UHGV virus genome: UHGV-1367777
Length of the DNA stretch: 44,172 nt
Strand: one strand, 5' to 3'
Origin: a virus
The notes below the pieces were generated by a model. That model was not told the DNA's origin, did no database searches, and worked only from the letters and a program-made list of their open reading frames with translations. Of the stretch, positions 2,754-37,565 are shown piece by piece (position 1 is the first letter of the stretch; each line of letters begins with the position of its first letter). The translations under genes and the position numbers were made by a program.

Positions 2754-3206
2754 ATGAAAGCGTTAGCTGAAGAAAAATTATATTGGCAAAACGAAGCGTT
2801 CAAGGCCCGTGATCTGGTGGAGAAACACGCCGCCGCTACCCGAAACGCGCGTGACGAAATCGGCGTTAAAGTTGCCACCATTCAGCGCGACCAAGTGCGC
2901 CTTAACCACGCCACCGACCTGATTAAAACCCTGGCGCGTATGGCTGGCGTTGATCTGCCCGCGATGAACTTAACAACAATAGGTCCTGAATATCTGGCTG
3001 ATATAGCAGATATCGTGACGCGCGAAGAGAAAGAGCGCAGCCACCGCGCGGCCCCACCAGATCACGAATACTTCCACGTGGCATGGTACGGCAACGGCGG
3101 CCCGTATATGGACGCGCGCAAGCTGACACGGGAAGACGCGGTGAAAAACCGGGCGATATTCAAGCCGGGCGGCAAAGTCAAACTGTATGCGCGGGTGCCT
3201 AAGTGA
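2754..3206 (+). CDS. hypothetical protein (150 aa)
   Basis: An AGGAG RBS is present. It is the first gene after the promoter motif pair and the 5'UTR hairpin. Confidence 0.5.
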   Translation: MKALAEEKLYWQNEAFKARDLVEKHAAATRNARDEIGVKVATIQRDQVRLNHATDLIKTLARMAGVDLPAMNLTTIGPEYLADIADIVTREEKERSHRAAPPDHEYFHVAWYGNGGPYMDARKLTREDAVKNRAIFKPGGKVKLYARVPK

Positions 3207-3899: not shown

Positions 3900-4372
3900 A
3901 ATTATTAATTTGTGATCTGGACGGCGTTGTGAATGCCGTATCCGACGTGCGCGCCCACCTGGTGCCGATCTACGTCGATAAATCGCATTACTGGTCTGAG
4001 TGGCACAAGGCGCACGAATACGAACCAATCAACCCGGCGGTGCGAAGCATGTTGCAGGCTTACGTCTCCCTGGGCTTCGAGATCTGCTATATGTCATCCC
4101 GGCAGAATACGTGTTCTGAATCCACGTCGCGCCAGTTAGTGGGTAACGGGTTCCCTAATGGGTCATTAGCATTGCGCCGCCCGCAGGATAACACCCCTCC
4201 CGTCGAAATGAAGGCGGACACCCTGGGCGCGCTGCTGTGCTATTCGAAGGTCGAGCAGTTGGTAATTTTCGACGACGACAAAAACAACCTGGACGCGATG
4301 GTGGCGGAGGCCGCGAAATTCGGAGTCCCCTGCATCCCGATCCACATTTCCAAATTTATTGGTTGCAATTAA
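3896..4372 (+). CDS. HAD-superfamily phosphatase-like protein
   Basis: HAD motif I LICDLDGV, a motif II Ser/Thr (YMSSR), motif III K (KADT) and motif IV FDDDKNN are all present. Confidence 0.6.
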   Translation: MKLLICDLDGVVNAVSDVRAHLVPIYVDKSHYWSEWHKAHEYEPINPAVRSMLQAYVSLGFEICYMSSRQNTCSESTSRQLVGNGFPNGSLALRRPQDNTPPVEMKADTLGALLCYSKVEQLVIFDDDKNNLDAMVAEAAKFGVPCIPIHISKFIGCN

Positions 4373-4392
4373 AAGTTGGTTGCATTATCTTA
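4357..4392 (+). promoter_or_regulatory. promoter TTGCAA-N17-TATCTT formed by two ATTGGTTGC copies 17 bp apart
   Basis: Motif copies at about 4359 and 4376. Followed by the 5'UTR hairpin CGGGGCGGattggCCGCCCCG (4400-4420). Confidence 0.5.
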
Positions 4393-4507: not shown

Positions 4508-5025
4508 ATGAAAGCACACGAATTAGCACAACAAGCCGCCGACATCCTGAAACAACGCGGCATCGAAAACGGGTACGACGCGGGTGAAGAGCGCAGCGCG
4601 GCGAAAATCGCCACGGTGTTCAACGCCATTACCGGGCATAACCTCACTGAACAAGATGCGTGGATGTTCCTGATCTGCCTGAAGCTGGTGCGCCAGCAAC
4701 GAAGCCTCGGCGTAGACCACCTGCTGGATCTGTCAAACTATGCGCTTCTGCTGGCGGAGTCCCACGGCAACCAGGACGGCGCGAAGGTCACAGGTGGCGC
4801 ATACACGGTTACAATGGGCGTTGGTGCCGGGAAATCGCCGACGATCAATGATGCCGTCCTTCGTGGCACGATCACCTGCAACAATAGCGCCCCCGTTTCG
4901 CACCAGACCATGCTGGACCTCGGATATGAACTGAAGCCTACAATCAACGACGAGCTTCTTTCCGAAGTCGTGAAGGACGCGATCCGCCGTATGTGCCGTC
5001 CCGGTGGCGAATTGTGGGGCCGCAA

Positions 5026-5029
<4 letters not shown>
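4508..5029 (+). CDS. hypothetical protein
   Basis: 173 aa. The N-terminal ~90 aa (AADILKQRG..YDAGEE...LICLKLVRQ...DLSNYALLLAE) resembles the N-terminal helical domain of phage nucleotide pyrophosphohydrolase-like proteins, but this is a weak call. Confidence 0.45.
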
Positions 5030-5660
<631 letters not shown>

Positions 5661-5706
5661 ACTGCTCTTCCGGTTTATATGCCGGAGTTCGTCCACCAGA
5701 AGATTT

Positions 5707-6819
5707 TTATAACTCCCTCAATTTACCTTCAAGCGATTCAACTTTTTTTGACAGAGCCTGAATAGCAAGCAAGGCGTCAAGAAGCAGGGCGTTATTGTCC
5801 AGGCTGTAACGCTCAGTGTCTTCTTGTGTATCAGGATTTCTGTCGAGGTTCAGATGAACGTACTGCGGGTCGATCTCCATTATTTCCTGGGCTATCACGC
5901 CACGACGTACAGCCCTTTTTTTGTCAGCTTTAAATACAAAACTTACAGGCCGCATACGGTTGATATTATCCAGGGAAACTATCGGGTCAATGTCTTCCAC
6001 ATCATCTTTGAAATTAATGTCAGAAGTCCCTGTTAATGCCAGGGTACCACCGGACTGCGGGAACATAACACCAAACGAATAGGCCCCACCAACATATTTG
6101 TAATAGTACAAATCATTACTGTTGATATACGCGAGACGACAGCGGACGGTACCCCCAGCCGAGTAGATTTCCATCTGACCATAACCGTCTCCGTTGGAGA
6201 TAAGCCTCAACTGAGACGAATAATTACCTCCCCCTACTAATAACCTTTGGCTGAAAGTAACGCCATCCGCATCAAGTAAAGGAACCACGTTTCCTGTAAC
6301 GCCAGTATCCTTCGTTGCTGATGTTCCCAAACCGAGGTTTGTGCGAGCGTCAGCGGCATTCGTTGCCCCGGTCCCGCCCTGGTTGACAGGAACAGCTCCG
6401 TTCGTTTTTAGGGCAGCGGTATTAGCCAGGTATCCCCACGAAGGCCCGGTGAACGTCTGACCATTCGGCAGCGTCACAGTTACGCTCTGTGAGTTGCTGT
6501 AGATGCTTCGCCAGTTGGTCGAGTCGGCGATCAGCATGCGCATTGCTTTTTGTGCCTGGGTGGTCACTCCCATGGTCGCAAGGGCCATCGACCCGACCGG
6601 GACCCCATCCCAGGCCAGGCCGGATGCCGTAGGGCCGTCGAAAGGCGCTGATAGAACGGCCGCCGTGTTACTCGTCACGGACTCCACCGCCAGCGTATAT
6701 GGCACCTGTCCGATTGTGACCACGACAAAGGCCCCGGCGGTTAACTCCGTGGTGAATGTGGTACCGGACCCGGTGAAGTTTTTACTGTTATTAGTTAGTG
6801 AAATAGTACCTGCCGACAT
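5707..6819 (-). CDS. side tail fiber protein with C-terminal intramolecular chaperone (S74-like autoproteolytic) domain
   Basis: Gly/Thr/Ser-rich fiber sequence with a GATNAADARTNLGLG motif. The C-terminal TSDINFKDDVEDIDP...coiled coil resembles the intramolecular chaperone domain of T5 pb1 and K1F endosialidase. Start set at MSAGT, which has an AGAGGTG RBS. Confidence 0.6.
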   Translation of the reverse strand: MSAGTISLTNNSKNFTGSGTTFTTELTAGAFVVVTIGQVPYTLAVESVTSNTAAVLSAPFDGPTASGLAWDGVPVGSMALATMGVTTQAQKAMRMLIADSTNWRSIYSNSQSVTVTLPNGQTFTGPSWGYLANTAALKTNGAVPVNQGGTGATNAADARTNLGLGTSATKDTGVTGNVVPLLDADGVTFSQRLLVGGGNYSSQLRLISNGDGYGQMEIYSAGGTVRCRLAYINSNDLYYYKYVGGAYSFGVMFPQSGGTLALTGTSDINFKDDVEDIDPIVSLDNINRMRPVSFVFKADKKRAVRRGVIAQEIMEIDPQYVHLNLDRNPDTQEDTERYSLDNNALLLDALLAIQALSKKVESLEGKLREL

Positions 6820-16255: not shown

Positions 16256-16510
16256 ATGAATATGCGAATTTTCATTCAGTCTGAGGACGGAGGGGGCCAC
16301 ACCCCCCGTCCAGTCTGAAAGACTAGGCTTTGTCCCGGTCGTCCCGCCTGCGATTTTCCCTTATAAATCAGTTGGGGGACGCCGGGACGTCCCGTTTGTC
16401 CCGCACCGAAACGGGACAAATTTCTGTCCCGCTTACTTATCCACGGCAACTGCATAACTATTCAGGGGACGGATCGGGACGTCCCGCCATGTCCCGGTCG
16501 TCCCGCCCCC
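16256..16510. repeat. iteron-rich element copy A
   Basis: Contains the GC hairpin GACGGAGGGGGCC-aca-CCCCCCGTCC and the palindrome AGTCTGAAAGACT. There are about 6 (T)GTCCCGC units, a 12-bp palindrome CGGGACGTCCCG twice, and the DnaA-box-like TTATCCACG. About 85 percent identical to copy B at 34569-34775. Confidence 0.85.
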
Positions 16511-16544
16511 ACATTATGGCAACCAATTACGAAATATTTTAAAT

Positions 16545-16582
16545 AATTGGTTGCAGAATGCATGCAACCAAGTTATAGTCTT
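16545..16582 (+). promoter_or_regulatory. promoter-like TTGCAG-N16-TTATAG with ATTGGTTGC/GCAACCAA motifs; AT-rich stretch just upstream
   Basis: Motif copies at about 16519 (reverse), 16547 (forward) and 16564 (reverse). It sits upstream of the secreted moron gene. Confidence 0.4.
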
Positions 16583-22863: not shown

Positions 22864-22912
22864 TAGCTTGCAACGCGTGATTGGTTGCATTAGTATTGGT
22901 TGCATCGAAACA
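22864..22912 (+). promoter_or_regulatory. promoter TTGCAA-N17-TAGTAT with two ATTGGTTGC copies
   Basis: Motif copies at about 22881 and 22896. Drives the + moron island. Confidence 0.5.
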
Positions 22913-22928
22913 CAACGGAGTTAAGACA

Positions 22929-23246
22929 ATGAGTGAAGCGCTGAAGAAGTTTTTATCTGAATGGCTGGAATGGGCTGAATCAGGAGCGCAAGGACATGAG
23001 GCCTTCGATCGCAGTTTCGGCCTGTGCGCTAACCTGGGATTTTGGCTTACAGAGAATATCCTGGATATCCCGTGGGAAGAAGCCGACACCGCAGAAAGGG
23101 AGTTCGGCCGTCTCCTGCATGACGAATTCGGCGATGAATACATGTACCCGTTTGGGCGTGTTGATTACCTTGTCCGGGGAAACAACGGTACTCAGCATTT
23201 AAACGAAGCGCGCCTGGCCTGGGCGCGCAAACAATTAGGAAAATGA
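22929..23246 (+). CDS. hypothetical protein (paralog of the C-terminal half of the 33891-34415 product)
   Basis: MSEALKKFLSEWLEWAESG...MYPFGRVDY...ARLAWARKQL aligns with LKQFLAEWLVWAETG...MYPFGKVAY...KRLAWVREML. Confidence 0.55.
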   Translation: MSEALKKFLSEWLEWAESGAQGHEAFDRSFGLCANLGFWLTENILDIPWEEADTAEREFGRLLHDEFGDEYMYPFGRVDYLVRGNNGTQHLNEARLAWARKQLGK

Positions 23247-23989
23247 GCATGAAACTGACAAACGAAATTCGTAATAAAATCCTGGCTAACATCGTTGCCG
23301 ATCACGCGGTCTCGGCCGAAGCGCGTACTGTTATCGACCGCTCACACGCCCTGGCTATGCAAGTTCTTAGCCTGGCGTACCCGAAAGGCGTAACGAACAA
23401 CGCCGAAATGGACGAGTGGTATCAAGCCGAGCGTAAGCGCACCGACACAGAGAGTATGTTAAGCACCAACTATTATCTGAACTACGTAACGGTGTACCGC
23501 GACCGAGACCGCAAAACGATCGGCATTCGCTCGGACAAGTTCGGCGTTAACGCAGGAGGACACGCCCGCGAACTGTTCCTAAGCGGAGATTACCACGATC
23601 AGGAAGGGCGTACGTTCGATGACTTTAGCCCGTGGATGGGTCCTATCGTGCCGGGCTACGCGTTGTCTAAGATGAAAGGCCTTCTCCAGTACGACGAGTC
23701 AGGCGCGTTGCAACGATTTTTCCTTCCGTACTCACGCGTGACTTTGAAGGGTCCAGCCCTCCTCGACGAGTTGGACGCGCTCGACCAAATGCGCCGTGAA
23801 GTGTGGGAGAAATACATCACGCTTCGGTCCGTAGTGTGGGCCACGCTGTCGAAATACAACTCAGACAGTAAACTGATCGAAGCCTGGCCGGAAGTGAAGC
23901 CGTTCATCCCGGCCGAGCAAAAGAAAACGGGCACGGCGGTAGCCCTCGATACCGCAACCTTAAACGCAATTTGTGGACTTCCTAAATGA
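23243..23989 (+). CDS. hypothetical protein (248 aa)
   Basis: ATGA-coupled to the upstream gene. No recognisable motif. Its 3' ~90 bp is tandemly duplicated downstream. Confidence 0.5.
   Translation: MSMKLTNEIRNKILANIVADHAVSAEARTVIDRSHALAMQVLSLAYPKGVTNNAEMDEWYQAERKRTDTESMLSTNYYLNYVTVYRDRDRKTIGIRSDKFGVNAGGHARELFLSGDYHDQEGRTFDDFSPWMGPIVPGYALSKMKGLLQYDESGALQRFFLPYSRVTLKGPALLDELDALDQMRREVWEKYITLRSVVWATLSKYNSDSKLIEAWPEVKPFIPAEQKKTGTAVALDTATLNAICGLPK
23885..23973. repeat. direct repeat copy 1 (~89 bp)
   Basis: Near-identical to 24022-24111: CTGGCCGGA(a/t)GTGAAGCCGTTCATCCCGGCCGAGCAAAAGAAAACGGGCACGGCGGT. Confidence 0.85.
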
Positions 23990-24288
23990 AAAAATTAGCA
24001 CTGGCGGTATTAGTCCTGGCCCTGGCCGGATGTGAAGCCGTTCATCCCGGCCGAGCAAAAGAAAACGGGCACGGCGGTGGCCCTAGATACCGCCACTTTA
24101 AACGCAATTTGGGGGTTACTAAAATGGTCGCGACAACAAAACACACGGCATCATTCGCCGAATGGTTCGAAGAGTACCGCAAATACTCACTATCACAGGG
24201 TATCGCGGCAAACTTCCCGGAAGAGTGGGAAGAAGATTATGAGGCGGGTAAAACGCCTGAACAAGCGTTTAAAGACGCGTGGGATTAA
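23986..24288 (+). CDS. lipoprotein (signal peptide MKKLALAVLVLALAGC) fused via the duplicated segment to a 54-aa C-terminal module
   Basis: Textbook lipobox. After the signal, the ORF reads through repeat copy 2 in an alternative frame into MVATTKHTASF..., which has its own possible start near 24125. Confidence 0.45.
   Translation: MKKLALAVLVLALAGCEAVHPGRAKENGHGGGPRYRHFKRNLGVTKMVATTKHTASFAEWFEEYRKYSLSQGIAANFPEEWEEDYEAGKTPEQAFKDAWD
24022..24111. repeat. direct repeat copy 2 (~90 bp)
   Basis: See copy 1. Confidence 0.85.
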
Positions 24289-24291
24289 ACG

Positions 24292-24322
24292 AAAAAGCCC
24301 GGCTATTGCCGGGCTGCTTTTA
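24292..24322. terminator. bidirectional terminator AAAAAGCCCGGCtattGCCGGGCTGCTTTT
   Basis: Sits between the convergent + moron island and the - spanin genes. Confidence 0.6.
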
Positions 24323-33551: not shown

Positions 33552-33894
33552 ATTTCGAATGCTCCACCATGCCAGCATCCTGCATAGCGCGCGCAATCTC
33601 GCCCGCCCCGGTGCCGTATGCGGTGGCCTGGTTGGTTATGCCGAGTAATTTGCGCATCGCCTCAAGCTGGGCTTCTGCGGTCTGCGCCCTGGCCGTCATG
33701 ATAGCCAACTGGTCGCGAAGGTCCGCTGTCTGGTCACTCTTCGCCAGGGCTGAGTAGTCGTCCTGAAGGTTGATGATATGCGCCTTGTACCCCCGATTCA
33801 GATCGCGAAGCTGGTTGTTGCTGTTCTCCAGCAGCAGGACGGATTGTAACGCGGTCTGCATTGCCGCTTTGAAGTTGTCCAGTTCTTTGCTCAT
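33550..33894 (-). CDS. hypothetical coiled-coil protein
   Basis: 114 aa. Heptad-like QLRDLN...AQLEAMRKLL. Confidence 0.45.
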   Translation of the reverse strand: MSKELDNFKAAMQTALQSVLLLENSNNQLRDLNRGYKAHIINLQDDYSALAKSDQTADLRDQLAIMTARAQTAEAQLEAMRKLLGITNQATAYGTGAGEIARAMQDAGMVEHSK

Positions 33895-34415
33895 TTCAAC
33901 ATCTCCCGCACCCAGGCCAGGCGCTTCTTGTTGGTGTGCTGTGTGCGATTCTTAAGGTCGCGGGCATACGCAACCTTCCCAAACGGATACATCTTGTCAC
34001 GGCCCGGCAGTACAGTTTTGAATAAAGCCATCACGCCCCACCGCGCCGTACCTAGGATATTGTGAGCGATGCACCACTGTGACAGGTTGGAACACAGCCC
34101 GACTGAAGGGTCCAGGATGGTGTGACGCCATGCGCCCGTCTCAGCCCAGACTAGCCATTCAGCCAGGAACTGCTTAAGCACACTCATGCCGCCTGCCAGT
34201 TCAGCGTCGATCCGGTTCTTAGTGCCTTCGGCGGTGATGGTGCGGATAACCGCACGGCCACGGTTGGTGATGCGCTTTGTCTCCACGCTGTAATCGCGGG
34301 TGCCGTCTTCGTAGATGATCCGGCAGTACGTTTTTCCGTTGATGGTGCAAGTTTTGATGTCAGCCATTTTGATGCCCTCAGTTCGTTGTCGATGAAAAGA
34401 TAATAGCGCATGCAA
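33891..34415 (-). CDS. hypothetical two-domain protein. Its C-terminal half is a paralog of 22929-23246
   Basis: See the paralog alignment. The probable start is MADIKTC (about 34367). It is the first gene of the - early operon, after a pair of ATTGGTTGC motifs. Confidence 0.55.
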   Translation of the reverse strand: MHALLSFHRQRTEGIKMADIKTCTINGKTYCRIIYEDGTRDYSVETKRITNRGRAVIRTITAEGTKNRIDAELAGGMSVLKQFLAEWLVWAETGAWRHTILDPSVGLCSNLSQWCIAHNILGTARWGVMALFKTVLPGRDKMYPFGKVAYARDLKNRTQHTNKKRLAWVREMLK

Positions 34416-34436
34416 CCAACTAATGCAACCAATTAT
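34410..34436 (-). promoter_or_regulatory. paired ATTGGTTGC motifs (minus-strand orientation) with an adjacent AT-rich stretch
   Basis: GCAACCAA at about 34412 and 34425 on the + strand. Confidence 0.45.
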
Positions 34437-34568: not shown

Positions 34569-34775
34569 ATGAATATGCGAATTTCTATTCAGTCTGAAGA
34601 CGAGGGGGGCCGATACCCCCCGTCTAGTCTGAAAGACTGGGATTTGTCCCGCTCCGTCCCGCCCCTGAGAGCCGCGCCACGCCTGAGGGGGACGCCGGGA
34701 CGTCCCGTTTGTCCCGCTTCAATTTTGTCCCGCTTTTTGTCCCGCTTATTTATGCACGGCAACTGCATAACTATT
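34569..34775. repeat. iteron-rich element copy B
   Basis: Same architecture as copy A. It has the hairpin GACGAGGGGGGCC-gata-CCCCCCGTCT, the palindrome AGTCTGAAAGACT, three tandem TTGTCCCGC units, CGGGACGTCCCG, and the DnaA-box-like TTATGCACG. It lies just 3' of the primase-helicase gene. Confidence 0.85.
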
Positions 34776-34814
34776 CTGCAATTGGTTGCCACTGTAATTG
34801 GTTGCCACATCATT

Positions 34815-37073
34815 TTAGTCCGCCAAATCGTCGTCGGTGGCAACCAATTCACGCACAATTCCGTCCGGGATCACCAGGTTCGATGTGCCCATTTGCATGC
34901 CTGTGTCGGGGTCCCGGTAGCCTTTGAACACGCCCCTTTCGATTAGCGCGTTGATGGCCGTTGTGTTCGTTCCGCCCTTCTCATAGCCCGCTTGCTTCAG
35001 TATGGCCGACTTGCTGAAGCCGTGGTGCCCTGGGTTGGCCTCCATCAGCGCTTCGAGCGCCGCGACGAATTCCGCTTCCTTCTTATTGCGCGGGCCTTCC
35101 TTCGCTTCGGTGGTCTGCTTCTTCACGATCTGGGTGGTGCCGAACGGTTCCAGCGCGACCGGGACGAGATACAGCGTTTCGTCGCGAGGTGATACGGACA
35201 CTGGCTTGACTGTGTGGCCCGCTGTGATGTCTCCCCAATCCGGGCCGGGGTTGGTGGCCTGGTGCGCCTCGAATGCGGCCGACTTCTTCTGATCGAAACC
35301 AACCTTGCACTTCAGCAGAATGAAGCCGCGTGGGGACTGTCGGGACCCGTTACGCATCTTCTCGTGATACAGGTTGATCTGGCCCTTCTTCTGCTCGTCC
35401 GGTTGCTCAATGAAGAACGCCGTATCAACGGCACCGTGCAGGGCTGACGAGCCACGCGGGGACCTGCTGCCGTTCGGTGATTTGGCCGGGTGGTGGATGA
35501 CGCCCGCTGACCCGCCCGTGGCCTCGCTGATTTGCTTCAGGGCGCTGACTACCTCGCCCATGTCGCTGGCGTTGTTCTCGTCGAAAGGCTTCTTATCTGC
35601 GGCGCGCAACGCCACGGTCTGGTTCAGCGAGTCGAACGTGATAATGCCGACAGGCTCGTCACGGGCCAGTTTGCGGATCAGACGGATGACTTCACGCACG
35701 CCGTGCTTACTGGTGATATCCCACCCGGTGGCCTGCATGTCGATGATGTGCAGCTTGTCCAGGTCGTCCTGGTACTTCTGCCGCAGGGCTTCCTTACGCT
35801 GCTCGGTGGACTCGCCGCCTTCCGCATCGAAATAGAAGTTGTGCGCCTGTACTACCTTCGCGCCACCGAACGGGATTCCGGCCGACACTGCCGCCATCTT
35901 ACCGAGCATATAGAACGATTTACCGATATTCGATTCACCCGCAGCGTACCAGGTAGACCGGAAGTTCAGCAGGCCCTCAACGATCGGGTCGTACTTCGTG
36001 AACAGGGATTCCGGTTCGTTCTCCAGGTCGAAGTCGGTACACACGCCGAAGTCCTCACCATCACCCACGGCGTCGGTGACGTGCTCATACTGCGCGGCAA
36101 CCTCTTCGTCGTCCAGGCCTGGCAACATTTCCGCGATCTGCTTACGGCTAAGCTGGTGAGGCTGAACGTTGATGTGGTCCGGCATACCCAGCAGGCGAAG
36201 CGCCAGGTGCTGGTGACGGTTTAGTTCTGAACAGCACCCGTTACCGGAGTGCATGCAGACGAAGCGCATTTCCTTGCCGTCCAGCATGATCGCGGTTGAG
36301 CCTTCGCCGGAGTGCAGATGTTCGTTTGGGCACGGCACTTCGTACCCACGGCCGGAGGACAGCGGTTCGAAACCCTGTTCGAAGCACCAATCAGAAATGG
36401 CCTGGTTGTCGCCGTTCAGGTCTTCGATCAGTTCCTTCTCTTCTTCCTGGTCAATCCCCAGCTTGTCTGCCAGGCGAAGCAGGCGACGAACACGGACCAG
36501 GTTGCCGTCGTGACACTCGACAACGGACTGAGCATGGGGCAGGTATACCAGGCGGTTGGTATCCACGGTGCAGTCATCGAAACCCACGTCTTCCAGGCCG
36601 AGGGAGTGCAGTAGGGCGTACTGTGCGCGGCCGAAGTCTGCCGCTTCCACTGGCTTGTCAGTCAGCACCAGGACGCGGATACAGCGGAGTCCACCTTTCA
36701 GTTCGTGGCGGTCCCCGGTGGTCGTGTGGAATACGTGGGCCAGGCCGGACTCCCGGAAGGCGCGTTTCACCCGGCGCACGGTGCGGGCGTCAGCACGGTC
36801 CAGGTCATAGAACAGGATCGAGCGGTTGCCGATGTCGGCTTTACGGCGCGTACCGTTAAGGGAGGTCGCCACGATACCGTCGGCGCGGGACTTCTTGCGG
36901 TTGTACCGGGCTTTATCTTCGGTGCCAGAGATCGACACGCTGGAAATATCGCGCGCGTCCTGCATGAATTCGAAGAACTCGGCAACGGTCATCGCCTGGT
37001 TATTTACCCGGGCGGATTCGCCTTTCTTCGCAGGCGGAGTAATGCCGAAGTGAATTAATTTGCTCATTGTCAC
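34815..37073 (-). CDS. DNA primase-helicase (zinc-binding primase N-domain + RecA/AAA_25-like helicase C-domain)
   Basis: 752 aa. Cys/His cluster CPNEHLH...CMHSGNGCC. Walker A GESNIGKS and Walker B IITFDSL. C-terminal ATDDDLAD tail. Confidence 0.75.
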   Translation of the reverse strand: MTMSKLIHFGITPPAKKGESARVNNQAMTVAEFFEFMQDARDISSVSISGTEDKARYNRKKSRADGIVATSLNGTRRKADIGNRSILFYDLDRADARTVRRVKRAFRESGLAHVFHTTTGDRHELKGGLRCIRVLVLTDKPVEAADFGRAQYALLHSLGLEDVGFDDCTVDTNRLVYLPHAQSVVECHDGNLVRVRRLLRLADKLGIDQEEEKELIEDLNGDNQAISDWCFEQGFEPLSSGRGYEVPCPNEHLHSGEGSTAIMLDGKEMRFVCMHSGNGCCSELNRHQHLALRLLGMPDHINVQPHQLSRKQIAEMLPGLDDEEVAAQYEHVTDAVGDGEDFGVCTDFDLENEPESLFTKYDPIVEGLLNFRSTWYAAGESNIGKSFYMLGKMAAVSAGIPFGGAKVVQAHNFYFDAEGGESTEQRKEALRQKYQDDLDKLHIIDMQATGWDITSKHGVREVIRLIRKLARDEPVGIITFDSLNQTVALRAADKKPFDENNASDMGEVVSALKQISEATGGSAGVIHHPAKSPNGSRSPRGSSALHGAVDTAFFIEQPDEQKKGQINLYHEKMRNGSRQSPRGFILLKCKVGFDQKKSAAFEAHQATNPGPDWGDITAGHTVKPVSVSPRDETLYLVPVALEPFGTTQIVKKQTTEAKEGPRNKKEAEFVAALEALMEANPGHHGFSKSAILKQAGYEKGGTNTTAINALIERGVFKGYRDPDTGMQMGTSNLVIPDGIVRELVATDDDLAD

Positions 37074-37077
37074 GGCC

Positions 37078-37383
37078 TTATTTAGCGTTGCGGACCCAGG
37101 AACGTACGGTGCTTACGTTGATGCCTGTAATCTCGGCAATCATCGCCCAGGACTTTCCTTCTTCGCGCAATTTGATAACCTGCGCTTTGTATAATTCCAT
37201 TTCGGAGTTATGCTTCTCTAACTTGCTCGCTGCCGTACCGTTCAGCAGTTCCAGTTTGGCGTTCAGCCCTTCGAAAGCGTCAACGATTAAATCGCGAGCC
37301 TGGACCGCCTCCATCCCGTCAGCCTTTTCAACGATGTCCAGTAATGCCTTCAGTTTCACAGTATTCATTTTAAGTAATCTCAT
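37078..37383 (-). CDS. HTH DNA-binding protein
   Basis: C-terminal WAMIAEITGINVSTVRSWV is a helix-turn-helix. The ORF track starts it at TTG 37428. ATG candidates are at 37383 and 37367. Confidence 0.5.
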   Translation of the reverse strand: MRLLKMNTVKLKALLDIVEKADGMEAVQARDLIVDAFEGLNAKLELLNGTAASKLEKHNSEMELYKAQVIKLREEGKSWAMIAEITGINVSTVRSWVRNAK

Positions 37384-37532: not shown

Positions 37533-37565
37533 TGTTGACGCAACCAACGCAACCAATTAACCTTC
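37533..37565 (+). promoter_or_regulatory. promoter TTGACG-N17-TAACCT with two GCAACCAA copies in the spacer
   Basis: Sits upstream of the first + early gene, 37608. Confidence 0.5.

Follow-up and report, generated by a model that had tools for sequence, protein, structure and literature searches.

UHGV-1367777, whose whole genome of 44,172 nucleotides is the window analysed here, is a 44-kb coliphage and a distant relative of the genus Dhillonvirus. Its gene order is that of the Dhillonvirus YD-2008.s and its major capsid gene shares about 78% DNA identity with YD-2008.s and JL1, with little else of the window matching. It carries two members, here called gene A and gene B, of a phage protein family represented by gp3 of phage N4 and catalogued as PHROG 2510 (“unknown function”). 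Gene A (22929-23246, plus strand) encodes an acidic, stand-alone protein of 105 amino acids (aa), described from its open reading frame (ORF), the phrog_2510 match, an AlphaFold2 model, substitution rates and isoelectric point (pI). Gene B (33891-34367, minus strand) most likely encodes 158 aa: residues 1-58 form a four-strand-plus-helix domain, and residues 62-158, the C-terminal 97, the family domain homologous to gene A (33894-34184, minus strand; delimited by BLASTP, the family hidden Markov model (HMM) and signature residues).

Gene A heads a three-gene island on the plus strand within the head module, flanked by the minus-strand scaffold gene on one side and the minus-strand spanin and head-morphogenesis genes on the other. 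An earlier note on this DNA, made by a model from the letters alone, had described the gene as stand-alone and as heading a plus-strand island inside the capsid module, which holds. Gene B is the first gene after a gap of about 400 bp downstream of the primase-helicase gene (34815-37073, phrog_3228), and this gap contains GCGGGACAAA-type repeats. The same note had placed gene B, as a fusion, at the head of an early minus-strand operon behind iterons; the fusion and the position behind the repeat-rich gap hold, while the early timing can only be inferred.

Homology and gene boundaries

BLASTP of A against the 158-aa form of B returned 46 identities in 103 positions (45%, E=5e-24), aligning residues 3-103 of A to residues 62-157 of B, and profile searches matched phrog_2510 to both proteins (A, residues 1-104, E=5e-20; B, residues 63-157, E=2.2e-19). 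The family HMM, run on the six-frame translation of the window, found exactly two copies, A with 117 bits and B with 100 bits. Since the BLASTP E-value, the shared phrog_2510 match and the family HMM agree, we accept the paralogy of A and the C-terminal part of B, which had been proposed at about 45% identity and which in a proper search lies far beyond chance. That the similarity is accidental, or that one or both ORFs are not genes, has nothing in its favour beyond their small size, and is vanishingly improbable given that E-value, the single profile matched by both proteins, the hundreds of homologues of each, the confident structure models and the ratios of nonsynonymous to synonymous substitution rates (dN/dS) well below 1 in both genes. 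A chance or non-coding explanation is therefore excluded and, because of the low dN/dS, A and B can both be regarded as genuine genes under purifying selection.

Gene B had previously been read as 174 aa with an N-terminal domain of about 70 aa, which corresponds to the maximal ORF up to a TTG at 34415. We dropped this form because the TTG sits within the motif pair upstream of the gene. A GAGGG Shine-Dalgarno sequence precedes the ATG at 34367, with which the public gene call (P0005, 158 aa) also begins; this ATG is most likely the true start, and the N-terminal domain then measures about 60 aa.

A phage-restricted protein family

When 1.84 billion representative proteins were searched with a profile, the family gained 1257 clusters (at 50% identity) at E<=1e-3 and 383 at E<=1e-10, most members being stand-alone proteins of about 100 aa. 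By tblastn, the domain was found in 136 phage records, among them N4 (gp3) and N4-like phages, T7-like phages of Pectobacterium, Ralstonia and Klebsiella, phapecoctaviruses, the T4-like Yersinia phage JC221, Delftia phage PhiW-14 and Pseudomonas phages. No family match was found in 72,556 plasmids (tblastn), and 5,426 complete E. coli genomes contained no match to A or B DNA by blastn, which detects nucleotide identities of at least about 65-70%.

Annotated genomes place the family gene in early or accessory regions: in N4, gp3 comes third from the left end, within the early region, ORF5 of the T7-like Ralstonia phage RSB1 lies two genes upstream of a gp0.7-type kinase, and gp06 of the T7-like Pectobacterium phage MA13 is found among small early genes. 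In N4, MA13, RSB1, JC221, phiWec188 and five metagenomic contigs, the surroundings consist of arrays of small genes without annotation, and the names given by the sources to 72 family members are all “hypothetical.” Pfam returned zero matches for A, B, 95 members and 10 multi-domain relatives, and NCBIfam and PADLOC zero for a query set of A and B that included multi-domain relatives; among PDB sequences nothing was significant with a single sequence or with the 95-sequence profile. A paper on polyvalent proteins that mentions N4 does not treat the A/B domain. The family, which the earlier note had not recognised, is phage-only and catalogued as PHROG 2510, but functionally uncharacterised and without a Pfam entry.

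The best-known relative is N4 gp3 (profile match E about 1e-20; tblastn E=6e-10, ~100 aa), which shares with A and B the signature F..W..W, GLC, YPFG, QHxN..RL.W and likewise lies near the start of a transcription unit. It is only about 35% identical to gene A, and N4 has one copy whereas this phage has two, one of them fused N-terminally. As gp3 has no assigned function, the comparison names the family, not a mechanism.

Predicted fold and conserved residues

AlphaFold2 modelled gene A with a predicted local distance difference test score (pLDDT) of 92.7 and a predicted template modelling score (pTM) of 0.86, with helices at residues 3-17, 32-42, 49-72, 77-86 and 93-102. The model of gene B (pLDDT 92.9, pTM 0.78) comprises four strands (3-9, 12-18, 24-33, 39-43) and a helix (47-57) within residues 3-57, followed by the same five-helix pattern, so that the two proteins do not have unrelated folds, the outcome that the earlier note had named as counting against it. 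With neither model did Foldseek find a PDB structure at E<=0.001 (best E 0.54 and 0.063, template modelling (TM) score below 0.4), and in BFVD gene A matched only uncharacterised phage proteins (TM 0.7-0.85, probability 1.0) from Delftia, Burkholderia, Pectobacterium, Rhizobium and PhiW-14 phages. According to these models, the shared unit is a five-helix domain of about 100 residues with a fold unseen among solved structures. In the N-terminal domain of gene B, the order of four strands and then a helix is that of PUR repeats and of Whirly-like nucleic-acid-binding domains; its Foldseek match to Borrelia Pur-alpha is non-significant (E 0.7-1.4, probability 0.1-0.2, TM below 0.3).

Across 95 aligned members (residue numbering of gene A), C33, P74, F75 and R95 never vary, conservation reaches 99% for W15 and H90 and at least 97% for G31, L32 and W98, position 80 is Tyr or Phe, and position 92 is Asn or Asp in 88%. 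Among 28 genomic copies from 17 loci, with every tandem-array member included, C33, F75 and R95 are present in all and H90 in 27. Gene B keeps F8, W15, G31-L32-C33, Y73-P74-F75-G76, Y80, Q89-H90-x-N92, R95 and W98 as in A; of these, the signature F8, W15, G31-L32-C33, P74-F75, Y80, H90, R95 and W98 is invariant or at least 90% conserved in the family. In the model, C33 follows Gly-Leu at the N-terminal end of helix 2, the loop that leads into helix 5 contains H90 and N92, and helix 5 itself carries R95 and W98; this Cys/His/Arg cluster looks like a functional pocket.

A Cys at a helix N-terminus after Gly, a His, and an Asn or Asp two residues later recall papain-like peptidases and deamidases. 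These enzymes, however, have an alpha+beta fold with His and Asn on beta strands, whereas the A/B domain consists of helices only and measures about 100 aa, and Foldseek found no such fold at E<=0.001, so that the likeness to a papain-like Cys-His-Asn hydrolase is one of residue types only.

Divergence, copy number and charge of the two copies

A 45-kb metagenomic relative carries both copies in the same slots, each with the upstream motif pair: an A-type gene (P0004, 70% identical), followed by an Nmad5 gene and a VG64-family gene, and a B-type gene (P0008, 67% identical) as the first gene after the primase-helicase gap. A second relative (L015) has an A-type gene (P0011, 50-53% identical) in the same slot. 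The distribution check suggested in the earlier note therefore shows both copies kept in place in one related phage and the A-type gene in another.

Both genes diverge much faster than their surroundings. Compared with relatives, identity reaches 90-100% for the capsid, major tail, terminase, portal and head-morphogenesis proteins (92-100% when capsid, tail and terminase are taken by themselves) but 50% and 70% for gene A, and the capsid alone reaches 98-100% in relatives where gene A is at 50-70%. Nmad5 is 78-79% identical to its counterparts. Gene B, at 67%, compares with 85-94% for most of its operon neighbours, a few small ORFs there being equally diverged (61-77%). Nei-Gojobori estimates against relatives gave dN 0.23, dS 1.34 and dN/dS 0.17 for gene A, dN 0.25, dS 0.79 and dN/dS 0.32 for gene B, dN 0.14, dS 0.62 and dN/dS 0.23 for Nmad5, and dN 0.01-0.08 with dN/dS 0.03-0.15 for most neighbours. 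At the protein level, A and B thus change 3-20 times faster than the backbone genes.

The two copies are not each other's closest relatives. A is nearest to P0011 (53%) and B to P0010 (51%), compared with 46% between A and B, and in a neighbour-joining tree the common ancestor of A and B spans the whole sample. A recent duplication within the genome was therefore rejected, as each copy is closer to relatives elsewhere than to its partner, and the “duplicated module” of the earlier note is better read as two old or separately acquired members, the two-copy layout being already present in relatives. Rarity of paralogs within a phage genome is also a weak argument here, the family being typically multi-copy: JC221 and a 44-kb metagenomic phage each have four adjacent copies, a 249-kb contig has three, phiWec188 has four within 8 kb though not as adjacent genes, and 13 of the 210 collected proteins contain two domains in one chain. 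Because arrays of three to four copies and two-domain fusions recur elsewhere, the paralogy of A and B is ordinary for the family. What this genome adds is two further members of a catalogued family of unknown function, in a two-copy state that is typical, not exceptional; the interest lies in the family more than in the pair.

The N-terminal part of gene B varies among relatives. P0007 and P0008 (L007, 10001-10771) carry an extra N-terminal segment of about 95 aa that gene B of the window lacks, and P0119 has the same segment joined to an unrelated C-terminal part. P0010 is stand-alone and lies mid-operon in the equivalent operon of another phage. Since the ~95-aa segment recurs with a different C-terminus, the first gene of the B operon is an assembly of shuffled modules.

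A and B also differ strongly in charge: A has pI 4.8 and a net charge of -8, the B domain pI 10.2 and +9. The B domain is the most basic of 95 sampled (family median pI 5.3, range 4.05-10.2, 70% below pI 6). A charge-driven A-B heterodimer was considered and found unsupported, as in natural tandem-domain proteins the charges of the two halves are not consistently complementary.

Upstream motif pairs and a possible regulatory role

Directly upstream of gene A lies a tandem ATTGGTTGCAT pair (22880-22905, plus strand; ATTGGTTGCATTAGTATTGGTTGCAT), which is kept in relative L006, and directly upstream of gene B a near-identical tandem ATTGGTTGCAT / TTGGTTGCAT pair (34433-34410, minus strand; ATTGGTTGCATTAGTTGGTTGCAT), kept in relative L007. 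The window contains 18 copies of the motif ATTGGTTGC, where 0.46 would be expected; these sites are mostly intergenic, often paired and in both orientations (e.g., 2677-2702, 4358-4383, 6847, 16519-16571, 22880-22905, 34410-34433, 34781-34805, 37540-37557 and 43926). The first motif copy at gene B reads TTGCAT-N17-TATTAT, and at gene A a possible promoter, TTGCAA-N17-TAGTAT (22869-22897), would have the pair in its spacer and start region. A TTGCNN-17 nt-TAnnnT arrangement is present at 5 of 33 TGGTTGC sites against a background of 2.2% (P about 7e-4). At other ATTGGTTGC sites, the motif falls in the spacer of TTGCAA-N17-TAnnnT. The earlier note had called A and B the first genes after a promoter pair: the motif pairs stand directly upstream as described, yet a scan for sigma-70 consensus promoters called neither site, and the best hexamers found manually match in 8 of 12 positions. 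ATTGGTTGC is clearly a regulatory motif and looks like a phage-specific promoter or operator element.

Short-repeat clusters of GCGGGACAAA / GGGAC type lie at ~34620-34760, between the primase-helicase gene and gene B, and at ~16470-16520, in the divergent gap beside the tape-measure gene. ATTGGTTGC sites flank each cluster, relative L007 retains the cluster near gene B, and both may be replication-origin iterons.

This setting could suggest that A and B are phage regulators of transcription or replication, for instance by binding to RNA polymerase or to ATTGGTTGC / iteron DNA, which would switch the phage programme and, as first genes of their units, regulate their own synthesis. Both genes directly follow the same over-represented motif pair, gene B adjoins the iteron cluster and the primase-helicase gene, it is basic (pI 10), and its N-terminal topology is PUR-like, although the Pur-alpha matches are non-significant (E about 0.7-1.4). 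In N4, the gp3 neighbours gp1 and gp2 are transcription cofactors, which was also counted in its favour. However, the domain shows no helix-turn-helix (HTH) or other DNA-binding signature and no Pfam match, most members are acidic, arrays of three to four copies are atypical of regulators, and regulators tied to one motif are unlikely to be common to N4-like, T7-like, T4-like and sipho-type phages with unrelated promoters. A better candidate binder of ATTGGTTGC is encoded at 37081-37368 (minus strand), a 96-aa Sigma70_r4/HTH-like protein. A regulatory function of A and B is accordingly quite improbable.

The Nmad5 neighbour and a possible enzymatic role

The second gene of the island (23243-23989, plus strand) encodes an Nmad5 domain (PF18757, E=6.8e-33), and is 37% identical to EpYD_36 of YD-2008.s; its start codon and the stop codon of gene A overlap in ATGA. 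A single Lys-to-Glu exchange near the C-terminus of Nmad5 enables Dhillonviruses to escape from the Tmn defence system, and nmad5 could not be cloned by the authors, apparently because of toxicity (Yamashita et al., 2025, PMC11846954).

A rival reading sees in the domain a small module, enzymatic or ligand-binding, for phage nucleic-acid metabolism, e.g., for a thiol-dependent step tied to DNA modification or nucleotide pools, with A working together with Nmad5. The invariant Cys, His and Arg with Asn/Asp92 resemble an active or ligand site, the overlapping stop and start of the two genes is accompanied by the order A-Nmad5 in three relatives, and a co-translated modulator of a protein that is reported as toxic to clone and as a determinant in sensing by Tmn (PMC11846954) is conceivable. 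On the other hand, Nmad5 occurs without the family and the family without Nmad5. The island of YD-2008.s lies in the same place and keeps Nmad5, its first gene being unrelated to A, and in SM_S22 the slot upstream of Nmad5 is empty and the whole genome holds no A/B-domain copy by the family HMM. Nmad5 was not among the downstream neighbours of family members checked in six other phages or contigs, and gene B has no such neighbour. Because of this mutual independence a general A-Nmad5 partnership is unlikely, and Nmad5 as a dedicated partner of the family was rejected as a general rule. A 3-20-fold divergence over the backbone together with arrays would also be unusual for housekeeping enzymes, and we consider a phage-intrinsic enzymatic or ligand-binding role, possibly alongside Nmad5 in the case of gene A, unlikely. 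With an unrelated gene in YD-2008.s and none in SM_S22, the position upstream of Nmad5 presents itself as a variable slot.

A proposed host-directed role of A and B

The reading that we prefer, though only tentatively and without considering it probable, is that A and B are early, promoter-proximal accessory proteins directed at the host. As two diverged members of one phage-specific, N4 gp3-like family (PHROG 2510), both would be made at the start of their transcription units, early in infection, and would serve counter-defence or host takeover by acting on the host. The core of the domain would be a polar cluster of Cys33, His90-x-Asn92, Arg95 and Trp98 with the Tyr-Pro-Phe-Gly loop; this conserved pocket could hold a common ligand or target feature, and the fast-changing surface could set which host variant is addressed. 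The copies would be specialised rather than redundant, A being acidic, stand-alone and translationally coupled to the Nmad5 gene, and B basic and tethered to a beta-rich N-terminal module that is swapped among relatives. A host-takeover or anti-defence function had been raised in the earlier note; homologues in early regions, the dN of 3-20 times that of neighbours, the expansion in copy number and the restriction to phages fit it circumstantially, while PADLOC offers no match. Genes at the phage-host interface typically show rapid divergence, amplification and domain shuffling.

Several points weigh against such a role. The domain resembles no known anti-defence protein, PADLOC, Pfam and NCBIfam being without match, and literature searches on phage N4 gp3 and phrog_2510 yielded no functional report. 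The early expression of A and B is itself inferred, and the unit of gene B runs on into lysis and morphogenesis genes. With dN/dS below 1 in both genes, positive selection is not demonstrated. Moreover, in comparison with L005 and L015, gene A has a dS of 1.34, which exceeds the 0.4-0.7 of its flanking structural genes two- to threefold, and for this reason allele exchange at gene A is suggested: the slot may have been replaced by recombination with old alleles, rather than having only evolved fast in place. The conserved residues could also be purely structural, and an invariant Cys/His/Arg set across phages of distant Proteobacteria fits a housekeeping or enzymatic phage role at least as well.

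Among characterised host-directed proteins, one close comparison is the anti-Tmn protein of the Dhillonvirus lineage. ORF35 of SM_S22, a separate small protein, inhibits Tmn in an allele-specific manner, and anti-Tmn is described as two N-terminal helices plus a sheet of three strands at the C-terminus and as confined to Dhillonvirus (PMC11846954). Like A and B, it is a small accessory protein of the same phage lineage, with counter-defence shown in its case (PMC11846954), and it is bound up with Nmad5, the neighbour of gene A. It is, however, not homologous: its helices and sheet differ from the all-helical A/B domain, and its restriction to Dhillonvirus differs from the spread of the A/B domain over many phage families, so that anti-Tmn does not belong to this family. 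The window likely has an anti-Tmn homologue of its own at 2754-3206 (plus strand), with 25.5% identity (E=4e-5) to CDS0035 of SM_S22, which by numbering and architecture is probably ORF35, the gene shown experimentally to be anti-Tmn. This ORF is the first gene after a ATTGGTTGC pair (2677, 2694), which fits loosely with motif pairs heading units that begin with host-interaction genes.

A second comparison is with the class I early genes of T7-like phages (Ocr, gp0.7), in whose region RSB1 ORF5 and MA13 gp06 are located. Family members are likewise small, non-structural and variable between relatives, yet A and B show no sequence or fold similarity to Ocr or other characterised class I proteins. 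DNA mimicry as in the anti-restriction proteins Ocr and ArdA would imply a shared acidic surface; with A acidic and B strongly basic, and no fold match in the PDB, a common DNA-mimic mechanism is unlikely.

A more specific and, in our estimate, rather unlikely version of the host-directed reading is that the N4 gp3-like domain represents a new fold whose invariant Cys-His-Arg pocket works catalytically, or as a sponge, so as to modify, cleave or sequester a conserved host molecule. Candidate targets would be a cofactor, a defence protein or a nucleotide of immune signalling, and arrays and fusions would then track host variation. If so, the family would be among the largest unrecognised counter-defence families of virulent Proteobacteria phages.

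Independent of the mechanism, the family deserves attention: it comprises more than 1200 clusters, is restricted to phages and present in the model phage N4 as well as in T7-like, T4-like and phapecocta-type phages, and combines a confidently predicted fold without solved relative and an invariant Cys/His/Arg cluster with the lack of a published function. The phage described here offers a clean test bed, with two copies in defined and conserved slots, one of them beside Nmad5, which is already implicated in sensing by the Tmn defence system.

Further observations on the Nmad5 region

A direct repeat of 106 nt (23883-23988 and 24021-24126; 90% identical, 138 nt apart) copies the 3' end of the Nmad5 gene to just downstream of that gene. 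The 100-aa ORF at 23986-24288, with its lipobox-like start (MKKLALAVLVLALAGC), is a chimera created by this duplication. Its phrog_519 match is confined to residues 49-99, and the third gene of the island probably starts at the ATG at 24125 and comprises the phrog_519 / VG64-like part (24125-24288, plus strand). About 35 residues at the C-terminal end of Nmad5 are encoded by the repeated segment; the reported Lys-to-Glu change of Tmn escape is likewise located towards the C-terminus of the protein. The plus-strand island is closed by a bidirectional terminator-like hairpin (24296-24315; 8-bp stem with 7 GC pairs and T-runs on both strands).

In SM_S22 (L014, PP627283), a “long” Nmad5 of 334 aa is annotated at 5005-6009, in which the Pfam Nmad5 domain starts at residue 80. 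Residues 7-69 of this 80-aa N-terminal extension match the antisense of the start region of the window's scaffold gene, and the extension is probably an annotation artefact. This bears on the published residue numbering of Nmad5, i.e., K296 versus K216.

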